This document shows positions 1,457 to 54,506 of a stretch of 64,000 nucleotides of DNA, piece by piece; position 1 is the stretch's first letter; the number at the start of each line of letters is the position of its first letter. The position numbers and the translations under genes were made by a program. This stretch comes from Clostridia bacterium (lineage in GTDB: Bacteria; Bacillota; Clostridia; Christensenellales; UBA1242): contig JAFWBI010000003.1 of assembly GCA_017507215.1 (NCBI GenBank), positions 15,687 through 79,686 on the forward strand. The letters run 5' to 3'. Under the pieces are notes generated by a model. That model was not told where the DNA came from and did not search any database. It saw only the letters and a list, made by a program, of their open reading frames with translations.

Positions 1457-1484
1457 ACTTTTGCCACAATTTTGTGGCAAAAGT
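1457..1484 (+). promoter_or_regulatory. Perfect inverted repeat / stem-loop between ORF1 and the ATPase gene (RNA stabiliser, weak terminator or palindromic operator)
   Basis: ACTTTTGCCACAA (1457-1469), TT, TTGTGGCAAAAGT (1472-1484) form 13-nt perfect complementary arms. The following sequence is CCTTATTG, so there is no U-tract and it is not a canonical intrinsic terminator. Confidence 0.5.
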
Positions 1485-1546: not shown

Positions 1547-4231
1547 ATGTCAAGAATGATTCCAAAATCAACGAAAGTTAAAACCCAACTGTTTAAAGGG
1601 CTTAATTTTTCGGATATTTTTGTAGTTTTATTTGCTTTAATTATAGTGGCTCTTGCGATGACCACTTCTTTTAGCATTATTCCAAAATTAGTCATATCAG
1701 GTATCACAGTGTTTATCACAGCAGTACTCTTTATGAGCTTTGAACCTGGTGTTAGGCTTTACAAACAAGTGGGCGACTTATTTAAGTTTTGGTTTGGTAT
1801 CAACACATATAAGAAGGGTAGAGGAAATGGAAAAAACAACGTTAAGCAACTTATGCCATACGTTGGTATCTTAGAACAAGAATATGACGAAAAACGTCAA
1901 ATCGGTATCATCGACTACAAAGAATATTTCGGTGCTGCTCTTGAAATTAACTCAATCCAGTTCTATATGCTTTCAGAGCAAAGACAAAACACTTATATCG
2001 AAACACTTGAAAGTGCATTTAAAACAATCTCAACTGAAGACCTTGGTGCACTTTACAAATTTCAAAGACCAATGGTTTTCGACAACTATATCGAAAACGA
2101 ATGCGTTAAAAGAGAAGAAATTTTAGACTCCGTTCGTAACGGTTCAACAAACATCAACGAAGCTAGACCAAGACTTGAAATTGCTGAAGCACGTATCAAG
2201 AACCTTGAGTCAATGAACGTTGACAGTGAATTTCCAGTTTTAAAAGACCACATGTACATCGCGTTCTATTGTAAGAACATTAGAAACTTGATTCAAGTTG
2301 TTAACTTTGTTCAAAGTACAATTGAAAGTGGTTCGGGTGGTTCAATCGAACCAAAAGTTCTTGACCGTAAGCAAACAGCTATCTTCTTGAAGAGTTATTA
2401 CAATTCAAACTTCGATGAGAGAGAAGTTAAGAATATTGACCCTAAAGATTTGATGGACTGGATTGCTCCAGAAAAAGTAACCTTTGGTATTAAAAGTTGT
2501 AGCATTGACGGAAGTTCATTCTCATTCTTTGAATTATCAGAATTTCCACTTGCAGTTCCAAACGCATGGGGAAGAACATTCTTCTCAGTGCCTGGTGCAA
2601 GAATCTGCTGTAAATTCAGACCAGTTGAACAAGGCGAATCAGAAAAACGTCTTGATAAGGCTATTATTGATATCAGAATCAGTGCTTCTGAAGGTAGTAA
2701 AAAGGCTTCTGCTATTATGGAAACCGAAACTCACCTTAAAACACTTACTGAACTTATGACCTATATCAAGCAAGGTTCCGAAGTTCTTTTCGACACAAAT
2801 ATTTACATGATGATTGAAACCGAACAAAAGAAAGCCTTCAGAACACAAATTATGAGAGCCGGCTTTAGAGCATATGACCTTTTTGGTAAACAAAAAGAAG
2901 GTTTTACAAACTGTAACGTTTCAAGACGTATGACAATCACACGTTTTGAAAGGGGTATCAACTCATCATCTCTCGCAGCGATTTTCCCATTCGTATCTGA
3001 CGCGATTCAAGACCCTAAAGGTTTCTATCTCGGTATGAATAGTGAACCGGTGTTCATCGACTTCTTCCAAAGAGATAAAGAAAGAATCAACTCAAACATG
3101 GTTATCATGGGTAAATCTGGTTGCGGAAAATCATTCTGTACCAAGTCAATTCTTGCAAACCTTGCAGCTGACAACAGTAAAATCTTTATTCTTGACCCTG
3201 AAAAAGAATACGATATTATTGCTAGAAACATGTATGGAAAAGTTATTGACGTAGGTTCTGCTAGAGAAGGTAGAATCAACCCACTTCAACCAAACGCTTC
3301 TCAAGACGACGAAGATAGTGGTGGTGGAAACGTAGCTCTTGCGATGCACATGCAGTTCCTTGAAACATTCTTTGGTATGATTCTTGAAGGTATCACCATG
3401 GACGGTATGGAACTTTTGAACGAAGCGCTTAAAGAGCTTTATGGTAAGTTTGGTATCAACAACCAAACACAGATTGAAAAAGTTAAGCCTGAACAGTTCC
3501 CAATCATGCAAGACTTATATAACTATATTTGTGAAAAGCATGACAACGCAACTGATGACTATAACAGAAACAACTACAAGATTTTAAAAATCTATTTAAA
3601 CAAATTTGCTGAAGGTGGTAGAAATGCTCAGCTTTGGAACGGTCCTTCAACAATTTCTTCAGCAGAAAACTTTATCGTGTTTAACTTCCAGTCACTTCTT
3701 GCTAACAACGCCGGTGCCGTTGCTAACGCGCAAATGCTTCTTATCATGAGATGGCTCAACAACGAAGTTATTAACAATAAAGACTATAACGCGAAATATC
3801 ATACAACTCGTAAGATTATCGTCGTTATCGACGAAGCCCACGTATTTATCGACCCTAAACAAACCGTTGCTCTTGACTTCATGCAGCAGATGGCTAAACG
3901 TATTCGTAAATATGCTGGTTCGCAAATCGTTATTACACAAAACATTAAAGACTTTACTGGTTCGCCTGAAATTGCTAGAAAATCAACAGCTATTATCAAC
4001 GCGTGCCAATACTCACTCATTTTCGCGCTTGCTCCACAAGATATGAATGACCTTGTTATTCTTTATGAAAAAGCAGGTAAGATTAATGAAAAAGAACAAG
4101 AAACGATTACTACAAACCCAAGAGGACGTGCGTTCTTGATGACAAGTACTTATTCAAGAACCAACGTAGACGTACTCGTGAACGACAGAATCCGTAACTT
4201 GTTTGAAAAATTACGTGAAGATGCAACATAA
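1547..4231 (+). CDS. VirB4/TraE-class type IV secretion ATPase with fused N-terminal PrgI/VirB3-like 2-TM segment (894 aa)
   Basis: The N-terminus (KVKTQLFKGLNFSDIFVVLFALIIVALAM ... ISGITVFITAVLFMSF) has the PrgI/TcpE/Orf17 pattern. Walker A is MGKSGCGKSF (nt ~3107-3136). FILDPEKEYDIIA...GRINPLQ follows, then Walker B IIVVIDEAHVFID (nt ~3821-3841) and RKYAGSQIVITQNIKDF. These are all hallmark blocks of Gram-positive VirB4 (AAA_10/CagE_TrbE_VirB) proteins. Confidence 0.85.
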   Translation: MSRMIPKSTKVKTQLFKGLNFSDIFVVLFALIIVALAMTTSFSIIPKLVISGITVFITAVLFMSFEPGVRLYKQVGDLFKFWFGINTYKKGRGNGKNNVKQLMPYVGILEQEYDEKRQIGIIDYKEYFGAALEINSIQFYMLSEQRQNTYIETLESAFKTISTEDLGALYKFQRPMVFDNYIENECVKREEILDSVRNGSTNINEARPRLEIAEARIKNLESMNVDSEFPVLKDHMYIAFYCKNIRNLIQVVNFVQSTIESGSGGSIEPKVLDRKQTAIFLKSYYNSNFDEREVKNIDPKDLMDWIAPEKVTFGIKSCSIDGSSFSFFELSEFPLAVPNAWGRTFFSVPGARICCKFRPVEQGESEKRLDKAIIDIRISASEGSKKASAIMETETHLKTLTELMTYIKQGSEVLFDTNIYMMIETEQKKAFRTQIMRAGFRAYDLFGKQKEGFTNCNVSRRMTITRFERGINSSSLAAIFPFVSDAIQDPKGFYLGMNSEPVFIDFFQRDKERINSNMVIMGKSGCGKSFCTKSILANLAADNSKIFILDPEKEYDIIARNMYGKVIDVGSAREGRINPLQPNASQDDEDSGGGNVALAMHMQFLETFFGMILEGITMDGMELLNEALKELYGKFGINNQTQIEKVKPEQFPIMQDLYNYICEKHDNATDDYNRNNYKILKIYLNKFAEGGRNAQLWNGPSTISSAENFIVFNFQSLLANNAGAVANAQMLLIMRWLNNEVINNKDYNAKYHTTRKIIVVIDEAHVFIDPKQTVALDFMQQMAKRIRKYAGSQIVITQNIKDFTGSPEIARKSTAIINACQYSLIFALAPQDMNDLVILYEKAGKINEKEQETITTNPRGRAFLMTSTYSRTNVDVLVNDRIRNLFEKLREDAT

Positions 4232-4255: not shown

Positions 4256-7200
4256 ATGATTAGACTATATTCATTTTTAATAAGTTTATTTTCGGCAGAG
4301 CGTGGCTCTAGTTTTTTGTCTGCTGCTGGTGGAATTTGGGGCTTCTTTGGAGTGCTTGGAAAGTTTATCGTTCGAGTTATCGCAAACTTTTTTGCAAAAT
4401 GTGCTAACTTCTTAAAAGAAGCTTCATGGGCCATCATTAAATTCGTACTTGGAATTGTTGATGCTTTTCAATTCATGATTGAAGAATTTTTAGGTATTTC
4501 TAGAGATTCAGAAGGTATGATGCACGGTGTGACCGTTGACGAAATGGTTACATATGCAGAAAACAACCAATCTGGGGCAACAAGTTTCCTTTCAGTACTT
4601 TCAACAACATTCAGAGCTATTTTAGCTGTTTCAATTGTGCTTTTGATTATCTTTACAATTATTGCAATCATAAGACAAGAGTACACTGCAGCAACTCAAG
4701 CAGCTTCTGACGGCAACAGCAATGATAAACGACCTATCATTATGGGTATGTTTAAAAAGATGCTTTATATCATTTTGTTGCCTTTGACAATGATATTTAT
4801 TATTACTGGTGTGAATTCCATTCTCGCTGCGTTTTCTCGAGCTATGAGTGGACAGGTGAATATGACTATTGCGTCACAAATTCTCGCCACTTCAACTTAT
4901 GACTCGAATAAATATCGTTATTACGCGCAACAAGATAGAAGGGTTCCAATCGTTATCAACACATATAATCCTGACGATTATGACCCAGATGAAAATGATT
5001 TGCTTGTTCAAAAAATCAAATCAATTTCAGTTCAAGGTAAGTTGCAAGACACAATTGTTAACATTAACAACAGAAACTTGTTGACTTTCAAAGAAGCCTT
5101 GACATACAAAAATAACAGACTGACAAACAGTGTTGAGTATGGTGATTTCTATGAACAATTCATCTGTACTCCTGAGCAATATCAAGTTATGGCTGACTTT
5201 GTTGATTATGCTCAAAAAACAAACTTAAACTTCCAAATCAGGTCACTTGATGACCCAGCAATCGAATGGAAATATGTTGATTCAGCCGTGTTCAATGCAA
5301 ATGATGTTTCACTTAAAATCAACTATCACGATTTGAACGATTTGAACAATAATGGAAGTGTTAAAGATTCATACACAATTGAATATTCAACAAGTTTTGA
5401 AGTTACATCTCCAATCACCGATTCAATGAAGACTATTCAAGCACTTCTTGGTATTGATGAGTATGCTGATAATCTTTATAAGACAATGGAAAGAGATGAA
5501 AATTCAGTTAACCTTGTTAACTGGCAAAATGAGAAAGTTTTGATTCAGCTTTCAGAAGACTTTGTGTTGAATAATCCAAGTTCATGGAGCAGGTTAGACC
5601 AACTCATTATGTATGAATATTATCACTTTGCTTCAAACAATACTTTTGGAAACTATTCAATTCAAGATTTGATGGAAGGCGTTGAACTTGACGCTGCGCA
5701 AATCGTTTATAGAGAATATTATCCTGAAGCAAATGCTTATTCAGCAGAAAGAACAAAAGATTGTGTTAAAATCAATGGTTCATATTACAACACCGTTAAA
5801 GACCCAAGAAAAACCGATTCTTATGGAAATGTTTATTACGTTTTGAAAGATTCACTTGTTGATGAAAATGGTGTTAGCGTTAGCGACACAACATTCTTAA
5901 ACAACGAATATGCAAGAATTGAAAAAGTTGAAGGTAGTGCAGCAAGATTGCTTTTGACAGGAAAGAGCACAGGTTTTAATGTTAACAATCCTGCAACTTG
6001 GGCATATTCAGACCAAATTTTAATCTATGAATTTTTCAGTGATTTAACATATAACAACATGCTTTATATCTACGATTTTAGTGAATTTATGGGTGTTGAC
6101 ACCAATGATGATGGCGACCTTGACAAATTCGTAGATGTTCCTGTTTATAAAATCACACATGCTGGTTTAGACGGAACAACTGAAAAAGATGATTTAAATG
6201 GCATTTATGTTCTTTTGAATGGAACATATTATAAAGTTAAAGAAGCAAATTCTTCTATCTATCATGGTGACACCGGTGTTAATCTTTATTCGCTTTGGGG
6301 AGATAAAGATGACACATCAAACAACTTCATTAATGAAGCAACACCATACACAGATAATTTGTATTATAATTACACAATAACTCTTGATGCTGGTTATGCT
6401 GATGCTTATGGCATCACAACAGAAACAGGTAATGCACTTTCTGCAGACCATATTGTGAGCAGAGTTGAAACTGCAACAAACATTAGCACTTTAACACCTG
6501 CATTTGTTCCTCTTGAACAAGACGATACTAACTATTTGAAATATAGCAGTTATTCAATTTCACTTTCAAGAAACTTTGACTTTGCAGATGTAAACACTTG
6601 GACATATAAAGATTACTTCTTATTCTATTTGTATTCATGCTATCCAAAAATTACTGGTAATTTAGGTCTTGATTCACTTAGAATTGCTGGACTTTCTGGA
6701 AATGTTGGAAAAATTGGTGGAACTTATGTTTTCCAAGTTAAGTATGATAAATACAATCCAGGTGGTGGCGTTCAAGATTTATATCTTTATATCGATATTG
6801 ATAAGTCACGTGCAATTTCAGACATGCTTATCAATAGAAAAATTAATTCAATCAACCTTGGACAGCTTATGACAGCAAATAGGGTTGATAACACAAATGA
6901 ATTGTTTATCAACGTTAATGTTGATGATTTAAAAACTGCACACAGTGAAGTGCATAAATTCAATCTCTCTGAAGGATTCTTAGAAACCGTTCCAGGAAGT
7001 TGGACAGTGTTAGACTATATTTTATACACATTCAGCGAGCAGGATAAAATTTCTTCAGTAGCTGATATTAAAGAAAAGGGATATTCTTCAGTTAAGTATA
7101 TCTTAGAGAATGATGTCGTTTATCAACTTGGACCATCAGCTGAAAAAACATACTTGAGCTTAAATGGAATCAATTCACTCGTTGATATTGATAACAACTC

Positions 7201-10200
7201 ACTCAATTTCTTAACAGAAAGAGATTTCTTAGAAATGCCACTTGTTGACTATATTGCAAAACTTTATAGAACAACTTCAAACGAACTTGTGACAAATGAA
7301 GATGGCGTTGTTGATGCTCTTTATAAAGAACTTTCACCATATATCTATGATATTGACACCATGATTGAAATGATTGTTAATAAAAATGGATTTAAACTTG
7401 ATAGTTCAATCGACCCAGCAAGCCCTAACAAGTTTGAAGTTTTCGATAATGTTTCAGAGTTTACATACACACCACTCCCTGGAACAAAAGTTAATGAGAT
7501 GTCAACTTGGACTAGATTTGATGAACTTTTATATGCACTCACTGGTTCATTCCAAACAAAATATACATCAAAAGTAATATATTACAACGATGATAATGGA
7601 ACGACAGATGATGCAACTGACGACACAGAGTATAAGTATTTCGTTGTTGGAAATTATGCTGTTGATATTTCTTCTGACGAAGTGGAAAACCCTGTAGACC
7701 CAGGCAATATGATTGATAATCCATTTAAGTCTACACTTGTAGATGGAAACGTTATCAATTCACCAGACACAAGTTTTGTTGTTGGAACTGACACAATTGA
7801 TGTGTTCTATCAAAATAGATACAAAGATTATGTCATCACAAAAACACCACTTGCTTATAAAAACACAGCAACAACATCTAACTTCGATAGAACATATAAG
7901 AATTTGACTGGTAACAGCATTGTTATTAACACAACATATAATTTATATGTTATTTCATATAATAATGAGCTTTATGTTGAAGTTTATAATGATGATACAA
8001 ACACTTACTATTATGTAAAAATAGATTCTTATTCAACAAACGCTATTGTTTCTGATGTTCAACCTGAAATTGTGAATGGATTTAAAGTTACTGATTATGC
8101 AAATAGTAAATTTAAATACACAAGGGGATTGTCATCAAGCACATATACAGCATTTGATATTGTTTATGAAAAGCTTATGGGGACAGCTTTATTAGTAAAC
8201 ACATCTGTTGAATACGATGTATTCTCAGTTAACGGAAAATTATATATTGAATTTAATAATTCTGGCGTTTTATATTATTTAGAAGTTACAGAAAGTTACG
8301 GCTCAACATTCTCAGTAATGAAGAAGTCGTCAATTAATCCTGTTGACACGGCAAAAGTTGCTGTTGTTGACCCAATGACTTTCGTGTCATTTAATAACAC
8401 TATTGACGAAGAAAGTAATGACCTTCAATTAAGTTCATTAAACTATTCAAAAATCGACGCAATCATTTATTCGATTACTGGCGAAATGAATTCAAAAACA
8501 TATTCAGTGTATAATCGCGGTGGGGAGCTTTATACATATGTTGATAATCAATATGTTAAGGTTAATGATGATTTAGTTGCTAATAAAAACACAGGTCATT
8601 TAGCTGAAAATGAAACAGAATTTCCAACAATCACGCTTAATCCAACAAATTATCAAATTCAAAGCGCACCTGTTTCAACATTATATGAAAACTATTATGA
8701 AAGTTTGATTGTTGAAGTTATTGGTTCAGTAATAACAGCAAGTGCAACTGAGGTTACTTATAGTTATGTTAAAAATGATGCAAGATTAGATATCACAAAT
8801 ATCTCACCATTTGCTTTAATCTTAGCAAAGAAAGGCTTAATCAACTTAAACACAACTGAAGAAGTTGAAATTTCTGGAACCGTTGTAACATCACAACGTG
8901 GCAGAAAATATTTCAAATTCAATGGTTCTCTTAATGGAAACCCACTTCAATTTAATGTGGATATTACAGATATTGCACACACATTTGTTGATGAAACAGA
9001 CACATCAAGTGTTAAACTTATCGATAATGCTGTTGCAAAATATGAAATGGTTTTAAGATATATGCTTTTGAACAATGGGGTTACAGAAAGCGAATATATT
9101 TCATCACTCACTTCATATAAGAATGACAGACAAGATTATTATGAAGTTCTTACAACTGATAAAAACACATTGAAAACTCCAATTGAAAAAACAGCTGGTT
9201 TTGATTTTAAAGAGCCAACTGCATCTGATTGGACAATCTATAACCTTTTGGTTTATAACCTTACTGGTTTTGCACCAGCAGAAGAAGCGATTGTTTACAT
9301 CGACGCTGCTGGTAACAGATATGTTGAAATCACAGATGGCATGAGCAGTGTTTATACTCAAATTTCACTTGGAACAAATATTATCTCAACATTGTTCACA
9401 AAGATTGAAACAACATCTGTAAACTATGAAAAGAAGAATGCAAGTGGTGAATATACTCCACTTGGAATTATTGCTTCAAAAGCAACAGATGTAGATAATG
9501 GCACAATCACTAAAGTTTTAGTTGATGATATGAATTTCTATTTCTTAGTTGACGGAATTGCTGGAACATATTCAGCTGTTTACGGACTTAATGAAGATGC
9601 TATTAGAAGCAAAAATACAGAAGGTCTTTATTCATATTACTTTGCAGGAAGTGCAACAGTTTCTAACTGGTCGGTGTTTGACACACTTATTGCACTCGTT
9701 GCAAACACAACATCTTCAAAAACATATCTTTCAAATATTTATATTTATGGCTCAAATGCCTACTATTTAATTAATGAAGATTTTGTTAACCTTTCAAAGA
9801 TTCGAGTGCTTACAAGCGCAGGGGTCGACAATATCTTTAATAGAATCGGTGACGATGCTCTTGATATCAATTATCAACTTTCACCAGCCGTTACACCACT
9901 TAAAAACTTTTACAATTCAACAACAGTAGGACATAAGGCTGTTACGGTTATTGATGACATCAACTCACTTGTTCCTGATGTTGATGACGATGATGATGAC
10001 GATGAAGAAAGCAACAGAATTTATTTCTCAGAAGATTTTGATATTAGTGATTTTTCAACTTGGACACATGCAGATTTGATTTTATATTACATGTTTGTTG
10101 AATATCCAAATTATTTCTCAAATGCATCTGTTACAATTTCAAACTTCCAACAATTGATTGAACAAGGATATGCTCCTGCATACGAATTTAATCACATTGT

Positions 10201-13200
10201 TGATGATGGTTTTGGCAACACTGAAATCGCAAAAGTTATTTGGGTTGGTGTTGATGAAACCGGTGGAACAGGCGTTGCTCTTAACAAGGCAGTGTTCCAA
10301 ACATATTACAATAAACTTGTTACAAACTTTGATAGCATTATTGAAGGAGATGTTCTTAAATATTCAATCGGAACAACAGCTCGTGACCTTCCAGCAACTT
10401 CAGACCCAGTGCCTCAAACAATGACAAGTTTCTATATCACAAAGAATATTGCATTAAACACAAATGATTTCATTTATGAAAACTATTTCTATTTCACACT
10501 TGAATATGGTTACATTAATAATCTTTTAGCTCAAGATTATAGTGCTATTGGTGCAGGAACAGGACAACTTGAAACTTCAATCAATATTGCACTTGGTCAA
10601 AATCTTGGAACAGACATTGAAGACAGAAAAGGATTTGATATTTCAAGACCTGAAACATGGACATGGCTTGAATTTATTGTAATTTACGAATTTTCAAATG
10701 TTTCAATCAGACATAATTTCTTTGAAGGTATGAGTTTTGATGATTTGTTTGTTGATAACTATGTTCCAGTGTTCACAAACGATAGAAATGAATTCATTAT
10801 TGAATTTAATGGAAATTATTACAACTTGAATGCGATTGATTATGTACATGATGGCGACGAAGCAAAACTATCAAGTGCAGAAATTGCTTCAATTATTGAG
10901 AGCAGAATTCAAGTTGAAGAAGATGATGGTGGAGATGTTCTCACAGTTGACGATGCAGTTCATGCAGGTTCAGACACCAAGTCGCAAATGAAAACACTTC
11001 GCTACACATATGAATATATGGCTAAAAAAGAAACAGATTATGCTCTTAACTACACAAAGACACCTGAAAGCATTTTATATTCATATAAAGATAGTCCAAG
11101 TGGCAAAAACTCAGCAACATTTACTTATATGAGCACAACATATAATTTCTATGTTGATGCTGATGGAAATGTTTCTTTTGACGGGGCAACAGAAACAATT
11201 TTAAGGGGAATCTTTGGAGCAAGTTTTACAGCTTCAGCTGATATTGCTGACGGAAAAATTACCATTGGTGGAAACACATTAAACTTTAAAGTTATTGAAA
11301 ATGGTACAATTTATTATTTAACACTTAACACGGAAATCATTCAAACTTATCAAATTAGTTTTGCAAGTTTGAACAGTGCTGGCAACTACACAATCACAAA
11401 TGTTGTTAGAATTGTTAACTGGCCACAAAAGTTAATGAATGATATTCAAACAATTTACCCAGACCTTAACTGGGCAACACTTCTTGCAACCGATGGTTGG
11501 CTTGATACACTTGGGGTATTCACATCAGCTCAAGCATCTGGTGAATATGAAAGTTCAGGAAACTCTGCGAACATCACTGCTGCAGGTTTGGTTCTTTCAG
11601 AATTCTTCTTATCTGTTATCAAAATGCCTGAAGATTTCACTTCAAGACTCGAATATGAATATATTCCTGTGTTTGATACAGACACAATCAAAGCTTTGAT
11701 GCTTTCAATGCTTGGTGAAGAAGAATATCACGACCTTTCAATGCAAGCAGAAGTGTTTATGGATATGTTCAACGAATTCTTCGTTCCAATCTTAGAAGAC
11801 ATTGCTAATGAACGTGGGGTTGAACTTGTTGAAGGAAAAGTTGATAACTTCTATATCAGCGTTTATAAAGCATTCCTTGCAACAGTTTTAATGTCTTCAG
11901 ATATGGCTGAATATTTCTATAAAATTGCAACAAGAGTTTACGCTCAATACACAATTTTAGACGCTCTTGCAAGTGCAAGTGGCGACTATGCAGCATATAG
12001 CAAATATATTAATATGCTTAGTGGAGCAGATGATAATGGCGTAACATCATTCAACTACGCAAATTTCCATCAGCTTACACTTTATGAAAATAGTTTCTCT
12101 GGAAACACAAATCCAACATTCACATTCAATATTCATTCAACAATCAATGGTCTTTATGGTCAAGGCTTAACATATAGAAAACTTTCAAATCAAGGTTATG
12201 CAGTTGTGAACTCAACTGGCAATGAAGACAAAAAAGTTACAAAAGCTGATGCTAAGAAAACATTTGAAAATGAAGACAACTTTGCAAAACTTGTTGATGA
12301 CCTTGATACAAAATATGAAGCTATTTATATTGATAGCCACTCAAGAGTGAAAGATAACAATGAAACGGGGTATTATTGTTATTTGTTTGACGCATATTGG
12401 TCAATCAGACAAAATCTTGATGACAGAAATATGCTCAGTACAACATATCTTGCAAACTATCACAAATATCTCTTAGGTGAAATCAAGAGATGGTATCACA
12501 TTTCTGATGTTAGCACGGAGCAAGCTTCAGCTTATATTCCAGACCAACAATCATATGAAATGAACATGTTGCTTTCAAGTGTTATGACAGAGCTTGCAGG
12601 TGTTTCAATTTATATGCCAGACGCAGACCAATTTGAAATCGAAGAAGGTGACAACCTTTGGGACGTTATTAAAGAAGCTTATGACACTGCAACTCAAAAC
12701 TCAGACCAAGTTTTGAAAACTACATTCAAAAACAACACAAATCTTTATAGTGATTATAGAAGAGCATATGAAAATGTATTTGATATGAGCAATAAGTTAA
12801 TCGGAAACGATGTAACTGGAATTTTAGGAATCATGAGCAAGTCTGAAAAAGGCGATACATCTGAAACCTATAGAGTTAAATTAACACAAACCGAAACAAA
12901 GAGAGTTGACGCGTGGAACAGACTTCTTTCTATGCGTGATGACCTTGAAATTTTGGTTAATGAACTTGGTTCTGTAATTGATGCAGCTCCTGGCTCTTAT
13001 GTTGAAGGAGATAATTCAAGGGGTTACAGAGACCCAAGCATTGATGATGGAAGATATGCGAAGGCTTATGAAGAACTTCAAAACTTCTACACAAACCTTG
13101 ATACATATATTTCAAATCAAAAAATAATTGATATTATTTATAAGACAAGTATCACATTCACACTTGCACAATTTGGTAAAAACTATGTAACCGAAGGATA

Positions 13201-15913
13201 TAAGTTTGAATTTGAAAACAAAGAATATACACTTAAATCTGCATCATCACCAGAAAGAATTGCTGAATATGTTTATGGTGGTGCGTTCCTTGCAAGATAT
13301 GGTGTTGCAGCTGTTTACACAACTCCTGAATATCATGGTTTTGTTGAGAACTATAGAGTTTATGATTCAAAAGAAAATGTTATAAAAACCCACTTAAACG
13401 TTTGGACTGAAATGCGTTCATTTGCTTCAGAACTTGCAAATTACACAGCAAGGCTCTATTACTTAAGTAACATGAACGACCTTTCTGGAAACGTCGGAGA
13501 TGCAATTTTATTAACAGATACTGTTTATAAAGGAAAATCTTCAGGTGGTGCTTCTGTTGATAGAACACTTGAACATATGATTTTGGAATATATTCTTCAA
13601 AGCGACCTTTCAGCTGATACTTTATTAAGACTCATATTTGGTGATTCTTCAGAATCACTTGATGACTTAAACGTTGACCCAGCAAAAGAGATTTATGCAC
13701 TTGCATATTTCCTTGAAGGCAAAAACTATACAACCAATAGTGACACGGGCAATATTAGAATTGAGATTGGGGAAGACCCTGACAAAGAAATTTTTGAAAT
13801 GAGCAGCTATAATAAGCGTCAATATCTTTCAAAATATCTTGAACTTGTTGCAAATGATGCAAGTTATGATTCATTTGGATATTATCACGATGGTTCAAAT
13901 ACCGGAAAAGATAGAATCCACACAATCTTCAAAAAGGTTATTTCATATTTAGTTGTAACCGAAGAAGAAGGTGAATCTGTTGCAGAAGATGCTGTTAAAC
14001 TTGATGATATAACATTTAAAGATTTCAGAAAATTGATGGTTAAAACACTTGGTGAATATGAAAAGAATCCAAGTGAAACCGATTTAGAAAACTCAAATCG
14101 TTACATTACATTGTTTAACTTAGTATGTTCACAATTCAGCTACACATATAAGGCAAGTTCAGAAGATATTGAAGCAGGAACAGCTGTAAGTGCTGTTTAC
14201 GCTAAAAATATTGATGGCAGAGCTTACTATATTCATCAAACAAACACTGGTTTAATGGATATTCCACTTTATGCAGACTTCTCAATTGACGTTCCAACAA
14301 GAGATATTATATTAACTCTTGCAGGTGTTGCAAACAGACCAATCGAAGAACTTGTTGGTCTTGAATACGACAATTTATACGCATCAGATGAAGAGTATGA
14401 TGAAGCTGATGGCGATGTATTCATTGTTTGTACGTATGATGAAATGGAAGGATTGTATTATCCAATTCTCGCTAGAAATCCAGATACAGTTATTCCTCAA
14501 AGACATAAAGATTATATTTCAAAGTATAATATTGATGTAACTACAAGGATTATTGAATCTGACTATGGTTATCCAATTGTTGCTAAAGGTGTAATTGATG
14601 CCGCAGGAAATCCAACAGCAATAAAAATTGTAAACAATTCAGTGTTGTTCTATAGAACAGGAATCACAACAACAACAACTGTTGGAGAAGGTGCGTTGTC
14701 GTATACTAAGAGTGGTGGTGAAATCACAACTATTGGTTATACAAAATATGTGGCACACACATATAAAAACGCAAAGGGAGCTGAAAAGATGGCAATGTTT
14801 ACGGGTTCGTCAAACATTGACACAATGATAAACTCAAAGATTTTGTTCTACTTCATACAGGTTGATGATTTGTATTCAATCACAGATGAAACAAACTTTG
14901 ATGCGATTTCAGTTCTTGACCAATTCTCAGCGTTCTACACGCTTGAGAGCAAACAATATGCGATGTTCCTTTTAGGATTCGCAACTATTATACCTATGCT
15001 CTTTAAAGCATCTGGTGCCGTTCTTAGAAGAATTTTAGATTTGATATTCTTAGTTTTAATGGGACCACTTGCCATTTCTGCAACTGGAATAGCTCCAGAA
15101 CAAGGTGGAAACACAAAGAGTAAGATATTTGATACTTGGAAGAACTATCTGACGCAGACGTTGCTGCATGTGTTTGGATATATAATAGCATTTAATGTCT
15201 ACTACATATTAGTATCAACCGTCTTGCAGATGGAACTTGTTTCAGATAACACTATGGATATGATTTATCGCATTGGTGGCTTATCTGGAATCATCACAAA
15301 AGATAGTGTTAACGCATTTATGCGTCTTATTTACACACTTTGTGCTGCTGGTGCGCTTGAAACTTCTGCAGACCTTCTTGTTAAGATTGTTACAGCAGGA
15401 AAAGCAGACCAAGCATTCTCAACAGCGATGTCTAAAGACGTTATGGGCGATGTTAAGAAAGTTGTTCAAGAAATCAAAGCGAAAGCTCAAATGGCTAAGA
15501 ACTTCATTAACGGAAAAGTTATCGTTCAGGCAAAAGACTTTGCTCTGGAAACAGCCAAGAATATTGTTCCTGGTGGAGCTGTAATCGACGCAGCTGTTCG
15601 AAAGGGACAAGATATAGCATCTGATGTTAAAGGAAAAGTTCTTGAAAAAGGTGCTGAAAGACTTGGCGTTCCTCCACAAATCGCTAAGAAGATGGGCAAA
15701 CAATATGCTGAAAATGAAAAGAAACAACGTGATGCAAAACGTCAAAACAGAACTAAGAATGCAAACGAATTCTTAGGTAACTTTGGTGTTGGCGATGGTA
15801 AATTCTTTGATGCTCCACCACCAAGTGCCGGAAAAGGCAAAAAGCCAAAAGGCAAAGGTGGCGGCGGTGGAAAGAAGAAAAAATCGTCAAAGCCAAAAAA
15901 GAAAAAGAAATAA
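4256..15913 (+). CDS. Giant (3885 aa) polytopic membrane/surface protein in the VirB6 gene position; N-terminal TM module, ~3300-aa ectodomain, C-terminal TM module, polybasic tail
   Basis: An uninterrupted 11,658-nt ORF with RBS TAGGAG 10-15 nt upstream, starting 24 nt after the ATPase stop. Hydrophobic segments lie at aa ~20-75, ~110-140 and ~165-195 (nt 4256-4860). More lie at aa ~3565-3680 (nt ~14950-15300; MFLLGFATIIPMLF, LIFLVLMGPLAISATGIAP, LLHVFGYIIAFNVYYILVSTVL). The middle is N/Y/T/D-rich, nearly Cys-free, and contains repeated modules. The tail is GKGKKPKGKGGGGGKKKKSSKPKKKKK. The VirB6-like call rests on gene order and topology only. Confidence 0.7.
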   Translation: MIRLYSFLISLFSAERGSSFLSAAGGIWGFFGVLGKFIVRVIANFFAKCANFLKEASWAIIKFVLGIVDAFQFMIEEFLGISRDSEGMMHGVTVDEMVTYAENNQSGATSFLSVLSTTFRAILAVSIVLLIIFTIIAIIRQEYTAATQAASDGNSNDKRPIIMGMFKKMLYIILLPLTMIFIITGVNSILAAFSRAMSGQVNMTIASQILATSTYDSNKYRYYAQQDRRVPIVINTYNPDDYDPDENDLLVQKIKSISVQGKLQDTIVNINNRNLLTFKEALTYKNNRLTNSVEYGDFYEQFICTPEQYQVMADFVDYAQKTNLNFQIRSLDDPAIEWKYVDSAVFNANDVSLKINYHDLNDLNNNGSVKDSYTIEYSTSFEVTSPITDSMKTIQALLGIDEYADNLYKTMERDENSVNLVNWQNEKVLIQLSEDFVLNNPSSWSRLDQLIMYEYYHFASNNTFGNYSIQDLMEGVELDAAQIVYREYYPEANAYSAERTKDCVKINGSYYNTVKDPRKTDSYGNVYYVLKDSLVDENGVSVSDTTFLNNEYARIEKVEGSAARLLLTGKSTGFNVNNPATWAYSDQILIYEFFSDLTYNNMLYIYDFSEFMGVDTNDDGDLDKFVDVPVYKITHAGLDGTTEKDDLNGIYVLLNGTYYKVKEANSSIYHGDTGVNLYSLWGDKDDTSNNFINEATPYTDNLYYNYTITLDAGYADAYGITTETGNALSADHIVSRVETATNISTLTPAFVPLEQDDTNYLKYSSYSISLSRNFDFADVNTWTYKDYFLFYLYSCYPKITGNLGLDSLRIAGLSGNVGKIGGTYVFQVKYDKYNPGGGVQDLYLYIDIDKSRAISDMLINRKINSINLGQLMTANRVDNTNELFINVNVDDLKTAHSEVHKFNLSEGFLETVPGSWTVLDYILYTFSEQDKISSVADIKEKGYSSVKYILENDVVYQLGPSAEKTYLSLNGINSLVDIDNNSLNFLTERDFLEMPLVDYIAKLYRTTSNELVTNEDGVVDALYKELSPYIYDIDTMIEMIVNKNGFKLDSSIDPASPNKFEVFDNVSEFTYTPLPGTKVNEMSTWTRFDELLYALTGSFQTKYTSKVIYYNDDNGTTDDATDDTEYKYFVVGNYAVDISSDEVENPVDPGNMIDNPFKSTLVDGNVINSPDTSFVVGTDTIDVFYQNRYKDYVITKTPLAYKNTATTSNFDRTYKNLTGNSIVINTTYNLYVISYNNELYVEVYNDDTNTYYYVKIDSYSTNAIVSDVQPEIVNGFKVTDYANSKFKYTRGLSSSTYTAFDIVYEKLMGTALLVNTSVEYDVFSVNGKLYIEFNNSGVLYYLEVTESYGSTFSVMKKSSINPVDTAKVAVVDPMTFVSFNNTIDEESNDLQLSSLNYSKIDAIIYSITGEMNSKTYSVYNRGGELYTYVDNQYVKVNDDLVANKNTGHLAENETEFPTITLNPTNYQIQSAPVSTLYENYYESLIVEVIGSVITASATEVTYSYVKNDARLDITNISPFALILAKKGLINLNTTEEVEISGTVVTSQRGRKYFKFNGSLNGNPLQFNVDITDIAHTFVDETDTSSVKLIDNAVAKYEMVLRYMLLNNGVTESEYISSLTSYKNDRQDYYEVLTTDKNTLKTPIEKTAGFDFKEPTASDWTIYNLLVYNLTGFAPAEEAIVYIDAAGNRYVEITDGMSSVYTQISLGTNIISTLFTKIETTSVNYEKKNASGEYTPLGIIASKATDVDNGTITKVLVDDMNFYFLVDGIAGTYSAVYGLNEDAIRSKNTEGLYSYYFAGSATVSNWSVFDTLIALVANTTSSKTYLSNIYIYGSNAYYLINEDFVNLSKIRVLTSAGVDNIFNRIGDDALDINYQLSPAVTPLKNFYNSTTVGHKAVTVIDDINSLVPDVDDDDDDDEESNRIYFSEDFDISDFSTWTHADLILYYMFVEYPNYFSNASVTISNFQQLIEQGYAPAYEFNHIVDDGFGNTEIAKVIWVGVDETGGTGVALNKAVFQTYYNKLVTNFDSIIEGDVLKYSIGTTARDLPATSDPVPQTMTSFYITKNIALNTNDFIYENYFYFTLEYGYINNLLAQDYSAIGAGTGQLETSINIALGQNLGTDIEDRKGFDISRPETWTWLEFIVIYEFSNVSIRHNFFEGMSFDDLFVDNYVPVFTNDRNEFIIEFNGNYYNLNAIDYVHDGDEAKLSSAEIASIIESRIQVEEDDGGDVLTVDDAVHAGSDTKSQMKTLRYTYEYMAKKETDYALNYTKTPESILYSYKDSPSGKNSATFTYMSTTYNFYVDADGNVSFDGATETILRGIFGASFTASADIADGKITIGGNTLNFKVIENGTIYYLTLNTEIIQTYQISFASLNSAGNYTITNVVRIVNWPQKLMNDIQTIYPDLNWATLLATDGWLDTLGVFTSAQASGEYESSGNSANITAAGLVLSEFFLSVIKMPEDFTSRLEYEYIPVFDTDTIKALMLSMLGEEEYHDLSMQAEVFMDMFNEFFVPILEDIANERGVELVEGKVDNFYISVYKAFLATVLMSSDMAEYFYKIATRVYAQYTILDALASASGDYAAYSKYINMLSGADDNGVTSFNYANFHQLTLYENSFSGNTNPTFTFNIHSTINGLYGQGLTYRKLSNQGYAVVNSTGNEDKKVTKADAKKTFENEDNFAKLVDDLDTKYEAIYIDSHSRVKDNNETGYYCYLFDAYWSIRQNLDDRNMLSTTYLANYHKYLLGEIKRWYHISDVSTEQASAYIPDQQSYEMNMLLSSVMTELAGVSIYMPDADQFEIEEGDNLWDVIKEAYDTATQNSDQVLKTTFKNNTNLYSDYRRAYENVFDMSNKLIGNDVTGILGIMSKSEKGDTSETYRVKLTQTETKRVDAWNRLLSMRDDLEILVNELGSVIDAAPGSYVEGDNSRGYRDPSIDDGRYAKAYEELQNFYTNLDTYISNQKIIDIIYKTSITFTLAQFGKNYVTEGYKFEFENKEYTLKSASSPERIAEYVYGGAFLARYGVAAVYTTPEYHGFVENYRVYDSKENVIKTHLNVWTEMRSFASELANYTARLYYLSNMNDLSGNVGDAILLTDTVYKGKSSGGASVDRTLEHMILEYILQSDLSADTLLRLIFGDSSESLDDLNVDPAKEIYALAYFLEGKNYTTNSDTGNIRIEIGEDPDKEIFEMSSYNKRQYLSKYLELVANDASYDSFGYYHDGSNTGKDRIHTIFKKVISYLVVTEEEGESVAEDAVKLDDITFKDFRKLMVKTLGEYEKNPSETDLENSNRYITLFNLVCSQFSYTYKASSEDIEAGTAVSAVYAKNIDGRAYYIHQTNTGLMDIPLYADFSIDVPTRDIILTLAGVANRPIEELVGLEYDNLYASDEEYDEADGDVFIVCTYDEMEGLYYPILARNPDTVIPQRHKDYISKYNIDVTTRIIESDYGYPIVAKGVIDAAGNPTAIKIVNNSVLFYRTGITTTTTVGEGALSYTKSGGEITTIGYTKYVAHTYKNAKGAEKMAMFTGSSNIDTMINSKILFYFIQVDDLYSITDETNFDAISVLDQFSAFYTLESKQYAMFLLGFATIIPMLFKASGAVLRRILDLIFLVLMGPLAISATGIAPEQGGNTKSKIFDTWKNYLTQTLLHVFGYIIAFNVYYILVSTVLQMELVSDNTMDMIYRIGGLSGIITKDSVNAFMRLIYTLCAAGALETSADLLVKIVTAGKADQAFSTAMSKDVMGDVKKVVQEIKAKAQMAKNFINGKVIVQAKDFALETAKNIVPGGAVIDAAVRKGQDIASDVKGKVLEKGAERLGVPPQIAKKMGKQYAENEKKQRDAKRQNRTKNANEFLGNFGVGDGKFFDAPPPSAGKGKKPKGKGGGGGKKKKSSKPKKKKK
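5570..10700 (+). repeat. About 11 degenerate protein-level modules inside the giant ORF, each marked by a W-[ST]-x-x-D-x-hydrophobic-hydrophobic-Y motif
   Basis: Strong copies are SWSRLDQLIMYEY (~5581), TWAYSDQILIYEF (~5995), TWTYKDYFLFYLY (~6595), SWTVLDYILYTF (~7000), TWTRFDELLYAL (~7505), DWTIYNLLVYNL (~9230), NWSVFDTLIALV (~9665), TWTHADLILYYM (~10060) and TWTWLEFIVIYEF (~10657). Weaker copies are YTAFDIVYEKL (~8150) and YSKIDAIIYSI (~8445). Each is usually followed by a Tyr-rich hairpin-like element such as NGSYYNTV, NGTYYKVKE, ELYVEVYND..YYYVKI, KLYIEFNNSGVLYYLEV, ELYTYVDNQYVKV, NRYVEITDG or NGNYYNLN. The nucleotide sequences have diverged, so this is not a collapsed assembly repeat. 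Confidence 0.7.
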
Positions 15914-15945: not shown

Positions 15946-18900
15946 ATGGGGTTAATTAATTCAATTAGTACAGTTCCGATGACTCTGATGAAGTTTGCTT
16001 CATCTATTTTCTCATCTGTACCGAATTTCTTGGCTGCAAAGGTTGGTTTTGAAGGAGCTGTTTCTTCATTATTCAACGGTATTTCAAAAATAATGTATTT
16101 TGTGGCAAAGTGGATGCTTTATGTGCTTGATATATTATTTTCGTTTATAAGGCAGCTTAGTGGTTTGGAAATGAAATATGATTCACTTGAAAGTATGGTT
16201 TCAAAAGAATCCGATTTCGTGTTTAATATGTTGTTTACGGCAACAGACTTAATCAATCCAATCATAAGGAATTTAATTGGTCTTTCAATTGCACTTATTA
16301 TATTCTTTGCAATACTTGCAGTTGTAAAAACACAATTCAATTCATTAAAAAGCAAAACACCAGCAGATATTAAAGGTGTTTTAAAAGACACAGGTAGAGC
16401 ATTTGTTTTACTCATTGTTACTCCAATGATAGCGATTATGGGTATCGTTGGTTCAAACTTGTTGTTGCAATCGCTATATCGAGCGACGAACACAACAAAC
16501 TCAAACAGTATAAGTTCTTCGTTATTCTCAGTTTCTGCAACTTCTGCAAGTGCATATCGAATATATGCTCAAGAAGATATGAGAATACCGATAACATTTG
16601 ACTTTACTGAACACGCAGAAATTCTTGAATATTATAAAAAACATGCAATAACTAAAGAATTTAGAGAATATGTTAGTTCAAGCAAAAACCTGATTTATTA
16701 CTTGGGTTATAAACCATTTACTGAAGGTAAGTTTTCTGCATTTTCAACCATGAATGATACTAGGGTTATAGACCCGAACAGCACTCAGGCTGTTAATGCA
16801 AAAAACTATTATCAGGTTTATGACAGAACACAAGAAGCTTATGAAGCGTTAAATTCAACAACAGTAAATTCGTATAAGAAAATCTCAGCATATAGGCCAG
16901 AATATTTTGTTATGGCTGATGTAATTGATTTTGGTATTGAAACTTCAACAGTGATGTATTTCAAAACCATTCAAGAAGTGCTTGAAAGCATTTCACAAAC
17001 AGGTGATGATTATCTATTCAATTCAACAGTTGCGCTTTATAAGATTCAATTCTTAGATTCTGATTTAAAAGTGATAAAGCGTCAGTTTGAATCTGTTGAC
17101 ACAGCAACTGAAACTGCAAGCTCTTATGCTACTTATAAAGAAATTTATAAGGGAAGTTGGAGTGTGATTCGATTCACAAGCACTTATTATGATGTGAATG
17201 CCGAATCAGAACCAACTAAGAAAATGCAGATTCAATATAACCATGTCAGAGATGCTGTCGATGAAATTCAGGGCGCAAAATTCATTATGACTGTTCAAGA
17301 AAACTTAAAAAGAACAGAAACAAGACAAGAGTATGTTGAAGGTGCGTTAACAACAATAACCGAAGACGTTGTTCACACATATTACTATCCACTTACTATT
17401 GGACTTTCACAAGGTAATGAATTTGTATTTGATTCAGAATATATTCAAACTGGACAGCTTATTGCAGCAAAAGGTGTCTTCTCGCAAGAAAGATATGGAT
17501 ATCCTGTTCCGACAGCGATAAGAATTTCAGAAGATGGTTCAGAAGTTCAATTTTATAGACATGATATCGAATCGGTAACAGTTGGTGACTCAGACCAAGC
17601 TGGTACTGGTACGATGAAAGCAGAAGAAGATAAAGGTGGATTTTTGAGCTGGATTAAGAAATTATTTGCGTTCTTAAATCCAAATTTCGATGTTAAAATC
17701 GACCAAGATGCACTTGTTACGGCATATCAATATTCAGAAACAGTTGTAAATGTTTTGCCATCAGGTAAACTTAACGTGAGTTATATGTTTGAAGATGGAT
17801 TTAGTAACAACCTTTTGAACTTTGCAACTGGTGTTGTGAATGTTGTAAATGCTTCAAAAGGTGAAGAAAGTGTTGAGCAAATGGGCATTCACGGACTTCT
17901 TTTAGAAAACGTATTTATTCCAAATAAAATAAATATGATAATCTTAATCTGTGGTTCGTTAATGCTTGTTAAAATCGTATTCACTGCGATATTCCAGCTG
18001 ATAAATAGAGGATATGAACTATTCCTGACGATAATTGTTTATCCAACGGCATGTGCAACAATTCCAATTATGGATAAAGACGATGGCTATAAAACGTGGA
18101 TGACGACGTTTGTCAGCAGGCTGTTCTCGACGTATGGTTTGGTTTTGGGTTTAAACTTCGTTTTGATGTTGTTCCCAGTTATTGCTGAACTTGAAGTTTT
18201 CACGGCTGGTGAAATTGCACTTTCTAAACCAATTATGAGATTTAGAAACTTATTCAGCACAATTCGAACGGTTGCGACAATTGGTATCGTTCAAGCCCCA
18301 ATCAGTTTTGAATTCTTAGCAGGATTCTTAAACATGGTTGTTGTCATCATATTCCAACTTGTTGCATTCACACTGCTTGAAACTATTCCAGAAACAATCA
18401 ACAGAATCACAAAATCTGCTCCACTTAGAGGTGTTAACCCAATCGAATCAGCAAAGAAAGTTCTTAAAGTTGTTGCTGCTATCGTTAAGACGATTTCGTC
18501 GGTTGTCGGTGGTATCAAAGACTTTATTATGATTGCTGGTGATATTGGTGGAAAGCGTGAAGAATTCATCAGAAATGCAAAGATGAAAGTTAAAGGATTC
18601 TTGCCTGGAAGTGAAATTGTTGAAAGTGCTAAAGACTTTGGCAATATGCAAAAGAAGAAACATGAGCAGAAAGAAGCCATGAATGAGCTTAAAGATGCAA
18701 TGAATACTGCAAAAGTTTCGGGCAAAGATGAAAAAGATAAAACTCCTGAAGAAAAAGAACAGGATAAGAAGAGTGCAAAAGAGATTCAAGAAAAATTCAA
18801 TAAAGTTCTTGAAGCTCAAGATAACTATCAAAAAGCTATTGCAGACCCTAGGGGCAACCGTTTGGCTGAAGATGACAAACGTCGTGCTAATGAAAGAAAG

Positions 18901-20151: not shown

Positions 20152-20186
20152 TATTTGTTTTCTGACAAAATTTCTTAAATCATTAA

Positions 20187-20221
20187 AAGACAAGGTGAAT
20201 TTCACCTTGTCTTTTTTTTTG
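20187..20221 (+). terminator. Rho-independent terminator closing the ATPase/giant-gene block
   Basis: GACAAGGTG (20189-20197), loop AATTT, CACCTTGTC (20203-20211), followed by a run of about 10 T. Confidence 0.85.
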
Positions 20222-46400: not shown

Positions 46401-46409
46401 GGGGTGTTT

Positions 46410-47099: not shown

Positions 47100-47101
47100 A
47101 G

Positions 47102-47136
47102 AAAAGCGTGGCATTTTGCTACGCTTTTGTTGTTTT
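47102..47136. terminator. Bidirectional terminator between convergent sigE and sigG
   Basis: AAAAGCGTGGCA / TGCTACGCTTTT hairpin (one G-U) flanked by A-rich and T-rich runs. Confidence 0.6.
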
Positions 47137-47158
47137 GAGATATGAAGTTTAAGGTCTT

Positions 47159-52391: not shown

Positions 52392-52417
52392 GTTGGCTTT
52401 TATGCCAACTTTTTTTG
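52391..52417 (+). terminator. Rho-independent terminator
   Basis: AGTTGGC / GCCAACT stem followed by T7. Confidence 0.75.
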
Positions 52418-53842: not shown

Positions 53843-53851
53843 GAGAAACAT

Positions 53852-54505: not shown

Positions 54506-54506
54506 T

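Follow-up and report, generated by a model that had tools for sequence, protein, structure and literature searches.

A thirteen-module array of an unnamed domain in a giant, probably VirB6-like membrane protein of an uncultured Firmicute

The question raised by the locus described here is what a recurring tryptophan-containing motif marks, in what kind of protein it stands and what such a protein may do for the cell. The stretch of DNA analysed (the window) comprises 64,000 nucleotides (nt) of contig JAFWBI010000003.1 of a Clostridia bacterium (GCA_017507215.1, positions 15,687 to 79,686), and the original prediction, made from its letters, had pointed to 11 degenerate modules with a W-[ST]-x-x-D-x-h-h-Y motif and a Tyr-rich hairpin. 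All 11 positions were found in frame 1 of a single open reading frame (ORF) of 3885 amino acids (aa), window 4256-15913 on the + strand, nine of them as strict Trp copies and two with the Trp replaced by Tyr. The count itself has to be raised to 13, since two copies had been overlooked, at aa 1210 (nt 7883) and aa 1516 (nt 8801), which were brought out by jackhmmer and by the alignment of orthologues. We show that the motif marks a single alpha/beta domain (about 90-200 aa) present in 13 diverged copies, and that the array of these is inserted into a type-IV-secretion membrane protein, a context that the first reading had not seen. On balance, we hold the best overall explanation to be that the 13-module array, carried in a split VirB6-like protein, would serve as the outside stalk or arm of a VirB4-powered apparatus.

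The array covers aa 418-2240, and the spacing from anchor to anchor is irregular, between 87 and 200 aa (anchors at aa 444, 582, 782, 916, 1085, 1210, 1297, 1397, 1516, 1659, 1805, 1936 and 2135). With the regular expression W[STA]xx[DENQ] plus hydrophobic residues after it, the nine strict copies were located at aa 444, 582, 782, 916, 1085, 1659, 1805, 1936 and 2135 (nt 5585, 5999, 6599, 7001, 7508, 9230, 9668, 10061 and 10658), and their anchors make up nine of the 25 Trp residues of the whole protein. The copies near nt 8150 and 8445 are the Trp-to-Tyr variants, at aa 1297 (YTAFDIVYEKL) and aa 1397 (YSKIDAIIYSI). The modules are given below with their window coordinates and strand; fractions refer to 27 aligned full-length orthologues and count those with the anchor Trp (W) or with the Asp four residues after the anchor (D+4).

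5507..5920, +, module M1: anchor W444 (nt 5585); ancestral copy, modelled with high local confidence over most of its length
5921..6520, +, module M2: anchor W582 (nt 5999); W 27/27, D+4 27/27
6521..6922, +, module M3: anchor W782 (nt 6599); W 27/27, D+4 27/27
6923..7429, +, module M4: anchor W916 (nt 7001); W 27/27, D+4 27/27
7430..7804, +, module M5: anchor W1085 (nt 7508); compact subtype, helix ending in L-T-G
7805..8065, +, module M6: anchor F1210 (nt 7883); compact, no Trp; 56.9 bits in jackhmmer
8066..8365, +, module M7: anchor Y1297 (nt 8144); compact, Trp to Tyr; D+4 22/27
8366..8722, +, module M8: anchor Y1397 (nt 8444); compact, Trp to Tyr; D+4 24/27
8723..9151, +, module M9: anchor I1516 (nt 8801); Trp lost in the lineage of the window; W 18/27
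9152..9589, +, module M10: anchor W1659 (nt 9230); compact; W 25/27
9590..9982, +, module M11: anchor W1805 (nt 9668); W 22/27, D+4 25/27; poly-Asp/Glu linker at its end
9983..10579, +, module M12: anchor W1936 (nt 10061); W 27/27, D+4 27/27
10580..10975, +, module M13: anchor W2135 (nt 10658); W 27/27

The sole simple-sequence tract in the array is a (GAT/GAC)n run at nt 9976-10005, which encodes DDDDDDDEE between M11 and M12 and may form an acidic flexible linker.

The homology of the copies was established at the protein level. With a 40-residue hidden Markov model (HMM) trained each time without the copy in question, seven of the nine held-out copies scored 5.5-25 bits, as against maxima of 2-7 bits over 200 whole-protein shuffles, while the copies at 1659 (M10) and 1805 (M11) were not significant against the same shuffles. 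A 127-aa module HMM built from the window and one homologue reached at most 9.3 bits on shuffles and recovered modules at 54, 47, 34, 47 and 13 bits in an independent orthologue, L002. Whole-protein self-BLASTP returned the identity match only, and BLASTP of segments against the protein uncovered internal similarity (lowest E 9e-7), concentrated in aa 403-2190. Starting from the Tyr-type unit at aa 1276-1372, jackhmmer picked up aa 1189-1266 and 1392-1455 together with the Trp-type units at 1078-1140 and 1648-1720, and in its alignment STWTRFDELLYALTGS stands above STYTAFDIVYEKLMGT and LNYSKIDAIIYSITGE. When it was started from the unit of the relative P0005 that is orthologous to about aa 1516, it found aa 1512-1581 at 24.2 bits along with M1-M5, M12 and M13. 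The self-comparison that had been proposed as a check of the modules, by segment BLASTP and leave-one-out HMMs, has thus given significant internal homology.

The amplification is old. The copies share 12-33% protein identity with M1, and no direct or tandem repeats were detected in the DNA of the array beyond chance matches of 20-48 nt; recent duplication or recombination of the array was considered and rejected on this ground. The claim that the copies are strongly diverged at the DNA level is borne out, as no DNA similarity was found between them, and so is the claim of an old domain amplification rather than a recent recombination, on the strength of the low protein identity and of the module-by-module conservation in 27 relatives.

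These relatives were obtained by an exhaustive hmmsearch with the module profile over 1.84 billion cluster representatives (clustered at 50% identity), which gave 52 proteins at E<=1e-3, 37 of them at E<=1e-10. The full-length matches are all 2900-4700 aa long; the profile aligns to 6-10 stretches in each, starting at about aa 400-550, and on re-scoring each relative has 5-10 modules at conserved positions. A word-indexed protein search had returned one homologue per 1000-aa query (two queries) as against the 52 of the exhaustive search, its 8000-candidate word prefilter being apparently saturated by the Asn/Tyr/Asp-rich composition; one homologue from that search, P0001, has 42% identity. Scans of genomes and metagenomes added L002 (3666 aa), L003 (2291 aa) and L004 (2041 aa). 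When aligned, the 27 full-length orthologues carry the anchor Trp in 22-27 cases at each Trp-type module and D+4 in 24-27 cases at eight of the nine; only at W1659 does D+4 fall to 11 of 27. M6 is present in only four of the 27, and for this reason we regard it as a recent lineage-specific duplicate of M7. The relative L004 has a single module, an M1 orthologue without the Trp (19.8 bits), and L003 a module remnant only. Three short orthologues (P0027, P0009 and P0028) keep M1-M4 and M11/M12-M13, with the middle absent, and mean identity is 0.27-0.47 in M1-M4 and M12-M13 as against 0.05-0.24 in M5-M11. As judged from these alignments, the array has grown from one ancestral module, and its middle is still changing.

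For the fold of the module, two AlphaFold2 models were prepared. The first covers M1, with an alignment of 14 paralogous and orthologous modules (predicted local distance difference test score, pLDDT, 75.3; predicted template modelling score, pTM, 0.67), and the second covers M1 and M2 (aa 418-755), with the 27 orthologues only (pLDDT 75.0; local pLDDT 80-94 for the larger part of M1 and 74-89 for that of M2). The two modules came out with their elements in the same order (model residues).

M1 2-13, M2 134-148: N-terminal strand or hairpin, then a loop
M1 29-40, M2 167-178: helix 1
M1 52-57, M2 185-195: short helix or helices
M1 59-68, 82-89, 92-103 and 109-113, M2 209-222, 225-237, 240-246 and 259-263: four strands

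In the predicted structures, the module runs from a strand or hairpin ([LF]-S-x-x-F) through a loop ending in Pro to helix 1, a short helix 2 in the long subtype, and a four-stranded antiparallel Tyr-rich sheet. The upstream element F-x-[LV]-x-x-P of the original prediction is present, and it is better written [LF]-S-x-x-F-x-h-x-x-P. The Tyr-rich hairpin (NG[ST]YY, ELYVEVYND..YYYVKI) does belong to the module, as both the models and the alignments make it the beta-hairpin part of the same domain; the invariant N-G-x-Y-Y is modelled as the turn of the central hairpin together with its first residues. The compact subtype (M5-M8 and M10) is without most of the stretch that lies between helix 1 and the hairpins. 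Residues 307-338 of the second model, which follow M2, are predicted to be disordered and are probably a linker.

The motif itself falls at the start of helix 1. By DSSP, this helix begins right after W-S in M1 (W27, S28, helix 29-40, D31) and right after W-A in M2 (W165, helix 167-178, D169), so that in both predicted models the Asp falls at N3, with Ser (M1) or Ala (M2) just before the first helical residue. The sequence S/T-x-x-D/E is the classical capping box of helix N-termini, and an aromatic residue at N' forms a staple. Because helix 1 starts directly after W-S or W-A in the models, Trp is placed at N', Ser/Thr at the N-cap and Asp at N3, and W-[ST]-x-x-D would be a fold-determining capping box and not a catalytic or ligand site.

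The domain was not matched in any library searched. Pfam gave a sole row on the giant, CdaA_N at E 0.05, and nothing on the array; on the 27 orthologous M1+M2 segments it gave chance-level, single-member rows only. Ig-like/Big, Cna-B, FIVAR, Rib, cadherin, CW_binding_1, MucBP, SLH and carbohydrate-binding modules had no Pfam match at E<=1 in the giant. The insert had no match in NCBIfam or PHROGs, the PDB sequence-profile search with the module gave zero matches at E<=10, and the best Foldseek results were E 1.3 (single module) and 0.29 (two modules) against PDB, with TM-scores of at most 0.25, and E 0.16, not significant, against BFVD. In the literature searched, neither these giant proteins nor the module were found to be described. 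By these comparisons, the array domain is an unnamed and unannotated family, and the earlier remark that it lies outside the named repeat families is upheld by Pfam, NCBIfam, PHROGs, the PDB profiles and Foldseek against PDB and BFVD. The proposed module HMM and structure comparison likewise led to the 52 relatives and to no known adhesin or carbohydrate-binding family.

An NTF2/VirB8-like or POTRA/cystatin-like fold was entertained because of the order of elements and a few Foldseek rows, and was dropped as unsupported by the scores. Like NTF2-like VirB8/TcpC, cystatin-like and POTRA domains, the module has helices on a curved antiparallel sheet (beta-alpha-(alpha)-beta4), and such folds serve as a lead, their Foldseek rows being at noise level. 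The NTF2-like structures TcpC (3ub1), TraE (5wii) and 2chc appeared only at E 1.4-3.9 with probability 0.01-0.12 and TM-scores of 0.07-0.15, and no POTRA or cystatin structure was among the top 50 Foldseek rows.

The protein that carries the array could be identified from its two ends. Its aa 56-248 align with NF045848 (conjugal transfer proteins of the MMCAP2_0566 family) at positions 8-178 (E 1e-8) and with NF045889 at E 3e-7, and its aa ~3547-3713 match NF045848 positions 166-313 at E 3e-7; native and full-length, the giant has no match to either profile at E<=1. When aa 256-3545 were excised in silico, the remaining 395 aa aligned in one stretch with NF045848 positions 8-313 of 322 at E 1.6e-18. 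Since the halves align, and do so continuously once the insert is taken out, the giant is a homologue of the ~320-position membrane protein of mycoplasma integrative and conjugative elements (ICE), split by an insert of ~3300 aa. Paralogues in L004 reach the curated cut-offs of NF045848 and NF045889 (122 and 94 bits), and the N-terminal part of L002 has a weak match (E 1.7e-5) to the pLS20_p028 family of conjugation transmembrane proteins. The layout of the giant outside the modules is as follows.

4256..15913, +, giant ORF: 3885 aa; MMCAP2_0566/Mbov_0396 homologue whose ~3300-aa central insert holds the module array
4421..4999, +, N-terminal half of the membrane core: aa 56-248; hydrophobic helices at about 57-75, 121-139 and 172-190 (hydropathy scan; NF045848, NF045889)
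4856..5506, +, conserved N-proximal part of the insert: aa 201-417; also in the array-less relatives L003 and L004 (BLASTP)
11396..14935, +, conserved C-proximal part of the insert: aa 2381-3560; also in array-less relatives
14894..15394, +, C-terminal half of the membrane core: aa ~3547-3713; some five hydrophobic helices (hydropathy scan; NF045848)
15416..15910, +, C-terminal tail rich in Lys, Arg and Gly: aa 3721-3885; K+R make up 25%, net charge +25; presumed to lie in the cytoplasm

The hydropathy scan of the whole protein gives 3-4 hydrophobic helices at the N-terminus and about 4-5 at the C-terminus. A residue of the window is kept by a mean of 0.51 of the orthologues in the N-proximal part of the insert and 0.39 in the C-proximal part. 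The latter region of ~1200 aa has no Pfam match and no PDB sequence match, and its motifs VNWPQKLMNDMQVIYPDLNW, ITFTLAQFG-NYV and NRPIEELV-LEYD-LY are common even to array-less relatives; the functional part of the ectodomain, perhaps an enzymatic or oligomerising one, may lie here.

The MMCAP2_0566/Mbov_0396 family is likely to be the mycoplasma conjugation channel's VirB6-like component. Mbov_0396 we take to be CDS16, from its numbering beside Mbov_0397 (VirB4/CDS17). The CDS16 of the ICE is an eight-helix protein and a likely VirB6-like component (PMC12857230), and CDS16 and CDS17 are both essential for ICEA transfer (PMC6030558). An 'extended VirB6' has been defined by a hydrophobic core with large extra domains whose roles are unknown (PMC12857230), and the giant, with at least five hydrophobic helices, a hydrophilic insert of 3300 aa and an adjacent VirB4, is an extreme variant of this class that carries a new domain family. 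With the known members, the Rickettsiales paralogue arrays (such as the four of Ehrlichia) and Gram-positive MPF-FA (mating-pair formation class FA) homologues of 700-900 aa (PMC12857230), it shares the polytopic core, the large hydrophilic domains and the several tandem paralogues beside virB4; its extension, in contrast, is 4-10 times larger and built of a repeated unnamed domain, and no sequence relation was seen (TrbL gave no match). Like the mycoplasma-ICE family, the giant stands beside a VirB4 that meets the mycoplasma VirB4 cut-off. It differs from that family in its size (3885 aa as against a profile of ~320 positions), in the insert with 13 modules at profile position ~178, in the three tandem paralogues and in the walled, spore-forming host; furthermore, the locus is fixed in the chromosome, whereas that of the mycoplasmas lies on a DDE-transposase ICE.

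The ORFs of at least 150 aa in the first 47 kb of the window are all on the + strand (G+C content 28-39%), and the Rfam scan of the window found no structured RNA. Around the giant, the following features were noted.

1..1440, +, 3' end of an upstream ORF running off the start of the window: K/R/E-rich tail without transmembrane helices, frame open from base 1; probably the C-terminal cytoplasmic tail of paralogue A, another giant of the same membrane-protein family
1457..1484, +, strong hairpin with a 12-14 bp stem after the upstream ORF: a promoter-like site follows at 1495-1523 (consensus scan, weak)
1547..4231, +, VirB4-type conjugal transfer ATPase of the mycoplasma-ICE type: NF045975; Pfam P-loop_TraG, AAA_10 and DUF87
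15946..20151, +, paralogue C: 1401 aa; split membrane core with a long charged tail; NF045848 at E 5.5e-15 and BLASTP match to the giant
20185..20215, +, intrinsic-terminator-like hairpin, 14-bp stem and T run: ends the VirB4-giant-paralogue C unit before lspA (20242) (consensus scan)

The ATPase reaches 595.1 bits against NF045975 (VirB4_plasma, Mbov_0397 family; cut-off 590) over aa 5-886, with Walker A GKSGCGKS at 522 and Walker B VVIDEAH at ~760 both intact. Two strongly hydrophobic N-terminal helices given by the hydropathy scan at its aa 24-62 (window 1547-1735), which the VirB4_plasma profile also spans, may represent a VirB3-like element fused to the ATPase. VirB4 is flanked by three tandem paralogues with the split core, each with a long Lys/Arg/Glu-rich tail (~540 aa in paralogue C). 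In the position of paralogue A, the related loci have a single ORF of 4253 (L005), 4960 (L007) or 3190 aa (L008), and the upstream proteins of L002, L003 and L004 match NF045848 and NF045889. The module HMMs found no modules in paralogue C or in the C-terminal halves of paralogue A and of the L002 and L004 upstream proteins, and the readable part of the paralogue A ectodomain has no W-x3-D modules.

The gene order is paralogue A (3190-4960 aa), VirB4 (~893 aa), giant and paralogue C (~1000-1400 aa), then lspA-rluD. It is conserved in the window, L005/L006, L007, L008 and L009 (the L009 contig having only the 3' end of paralogue A), and the giants there belong to different 50%-identity clusters. 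In the window (20242-21614) and in L005-L009, lspA and rluD always come next after the four-gene locus, together with two conserved small ORFs that have ~105 aa each in the relatives. Adjacency of VirB4 and giant was also seen in L001, L002 and L005-L010. L003 and L004, with few or no modules, lie in other genomic contexts. The position upstream of lspA-rluD is fixed in at least five divergent lineages. These comparisons show that the locus is vertically conserved there in a clade of uncultured Firmicutes, and it is probably not mobile at present.

Past the first 20 kb, the window carries lspA, rluD, tig, clpP, clpX and engB, a division and cell wall (dcw) cluster (mraW, penicillin-binding protein, murE, mraY, murD, ftsW, murA, ftsQ-like, ftsA and ftsZ) and, at 45558-47929 and 51219-56621, spoIIGA, two sporulation-type sigma genes (one on the opposite strand), spoIIP, engA and spoIVA. 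Because the window holds both peptidoglycan-synthesis and sporulation genes, the host is regarded as a walled, endospore-forming Firmicute; it is an uncultured gut or rumen Firmicute, and its relatives are labelled 'uncultured Clostridia bacterium' or 'Bacilli bacterium' metagenome-assembled genomes.

From the evidence above, the array would most likely serve outside the cell, as a stalk or contact arm belonging to a type-IV-secretion-like machine. The insert has a net charge of -235; the loop at 80-116 is acidic, the loop at 140-167 before helix 172-190 is basic, and the tail is +25. Cysteine makes up 0.18% of the insert as against 1.34% of the housekeeping proteins in the same window. Exported Firmicute proteins avoid cysteine. 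Hydropathy, charge pattern and low Cys thus argue for an extracytoplasmic insert, and we propose a topology with the N-terminus inside, three transmembrane helices, the loop outside, five transmembrane helices and the C-terminus inside. In this arrangement, the array would be an extended, partly flexible stalk or arm outside the cell, which would carry the external part of the machine through the thick cell wall, and the variable middle modules would be its exposed distal part. The whole locus would then be a VirB4-powered type-IV-secretion-like apparatus for cell-to-cell transfer or contact. Thirteen folded units with partly disordered linkers could span tens of nanometres, about the scale of a Gram-positive wall, and the profile of the wall-less mycoplasmas is without such a loop; for these two reasons, the stalk or arm is favoured.

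Several points weigh against this explanation and should be considered with it. The identity and the evolution of the giant are well supported by sequence comparison; its function is in its entirety something that we infer. The excised construct stays below the curated cut-offs (67.1 as against 90 bits for NF045848 and 34.6 as against 70 for NF045889), and Pfam TrbL/VirB6 (PF04610 and relatives) has no match in the giant. The topology rests on hydropathy and charge, and in the R388 system, whose structure has been solved, the majority of the hydrophobic helices of VirB6 do not span the membrane (PMC12857230). No VirD4 (CDS5), relaxase, wall hydrolase, VirB8-like gene, DDE transposase (CDS22) or inverted repeats were found in the readable flanks (as far as paralogue A), so that a DNA-transfer machine at the VirB4-giant locus is putative. 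Array-less relatives (L003) exist, which makes the array dispensable for the core of the machine. Finally, the relative P0004 has zinc-ribbon-like inserts, CxxC-(13-15 aa)-CxxC, in two array modules (aa 821-841 and 1678-1699), and a similar CxxC motif occurs at aa 2263-2284 of the L003 giant, in its presumed cytoplasmic tail; the inserts of P0004 are odd for an otherwise Cys-free array that is presumed to be extracellular.

The main rival to the stalk is a ligand-binding one, in which the modules form an adhesin or cell-wall-binding array whose Trp/Tyr hairpins would attach to glycans, teichoic acids or peptidoglycan, either of the producer or of a partner cell, for tethering or target choice, with length being beside the point. 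The aromatic-rich hairpins (N-G-x-Y-Y, Y-Y-V-K-I) are superficially like choline- or cell-wall-binding repeats, Tyr makes up 8% of the array, and the middle modules diverge fastest and vary in number, as would be the case for surfaces under diversifying pressure. With CW_binding_1-type and other Gram-positive surface repeat proteins, the giant indeed shares tandem diverged modules, very large size, acidic and Cys-poor composition, presumed surface exposure, a Firmicute host and aromatic-rich beta-hairpins with an N-G turn. However, none of the 27 orthologues matches a profile of such repeats, and the Pfam search gave no match to CW_binding_1, SLH, MucBP, Big, Cna-B, Rib, FIVAR or carbohydrate-binding modules. 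The module, an alpha/beta unit whose helix is capped, is neither an all-beta sandwich nor a hairpin solenoid, and its spacing is irregular at 87-200 aa; the invariant W, D, F and turn N/Y sit at the helix cap, core or turn and form no obvious exposed site, and no structural match to lectins or adhesins was obtained. We therefore regard ligand binding as unlikely, though to be taken seriously, and the two explanations are not mutually exclusive.

A second rival would be a domesticated remnant that transfers no macromolecules, in which the giants serve cell-cell cohesion, an envelope scaffold or a sporulation role and the array is a generic extracellular scaffold. The fixed lspA-rluD position over deep divergence is unusual for a mobile ICE, the host forms spores, and neither VirD4 nor relaxase lies in the readable flanks, all of which would suit a remnant. 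It is opposed by the intact Walker A and B motifs of VirB4 and its full-length similarity to the conjugative ATPase family, and by the conserved operon structure of VirB4, giant and paralogue C; moreover, chromosomal type IV secretion systems with non-conjugative functions still translocate substrates (PMC12857230). Loss of transfer is thus an improbable account of the locus.

That the recurrence of the motif is a chance or composition artefact of a low-GC, Tyr/Asn-rich ORF, or that the gene is a phage tail, fibre or tape-measure gene, is hardly credible, since, in spite of the biased composition (G+C 32-35%) and of weak PHROG or gpW-like matches among the neighbours, the trained copies (34-90 bits) and the held-out ones outscore shuffles, whose maximum is 2-9 bits (two of the nine held-out copies not being significant), the motif is conserved, column for column, across 27 orthologues, none of the viral contigs encodes a relative, and the flanks are VirB4 and housekeeping genes. 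Phage origin was rejected as a candidate, the PHROG and gpW matches being sub-threshold and no relative lying on viral contigs.

Returning to the extracellular stalk or arm, a bolder version of it may be put forward, which we consider rather doubtful. A clade of walled spore-formers would have fixed a minimal mycoplasma-type machine of one VirB4 and three VirB6-like giants of 1000-4960 aa, and the 13-module loop of the middle paralogue would oligomerise, as VirB6 does, into a wall-crossing extracellular tube or needle that contacts other cells, a substitute for a pilus, built in one polypeptide from repeats of a new fold, for routine exchange of DNA or protein and not for a selfish element.

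One further observation in the window concerns the dcw cluster, in which a 534-aa protein with four mTERF repeats (PF02536, E 1e-59) is encoded between ftsW and murA (36759-38363, + strand). An mTERF protein in a bacterial dcw cluster is unusual, as these proteins are typical of mitochondria and plastids.

The type IV secretion systems of Gram-positive bacteria and mycoplasmas have no pilus, and how they bridge the wall and contact a partner is an open question. The family described here gives a natural series of 0, 1, 6-7 and 12-13 domain copies at the same loop of a VirB6-like core, and as this core is homologous to the ~320-position family of the wall-less mycoplasmas, the role of VirB6 extensions becomes directly testable. 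It also adds a new unannotated domain family of about 50 clusters at 50% identity, all of them hypothetical proteins, and provides evidence that the transfer module of mycoplasma ICE has relatives fixed in the chromosomes of spore-forming Firmicutes.

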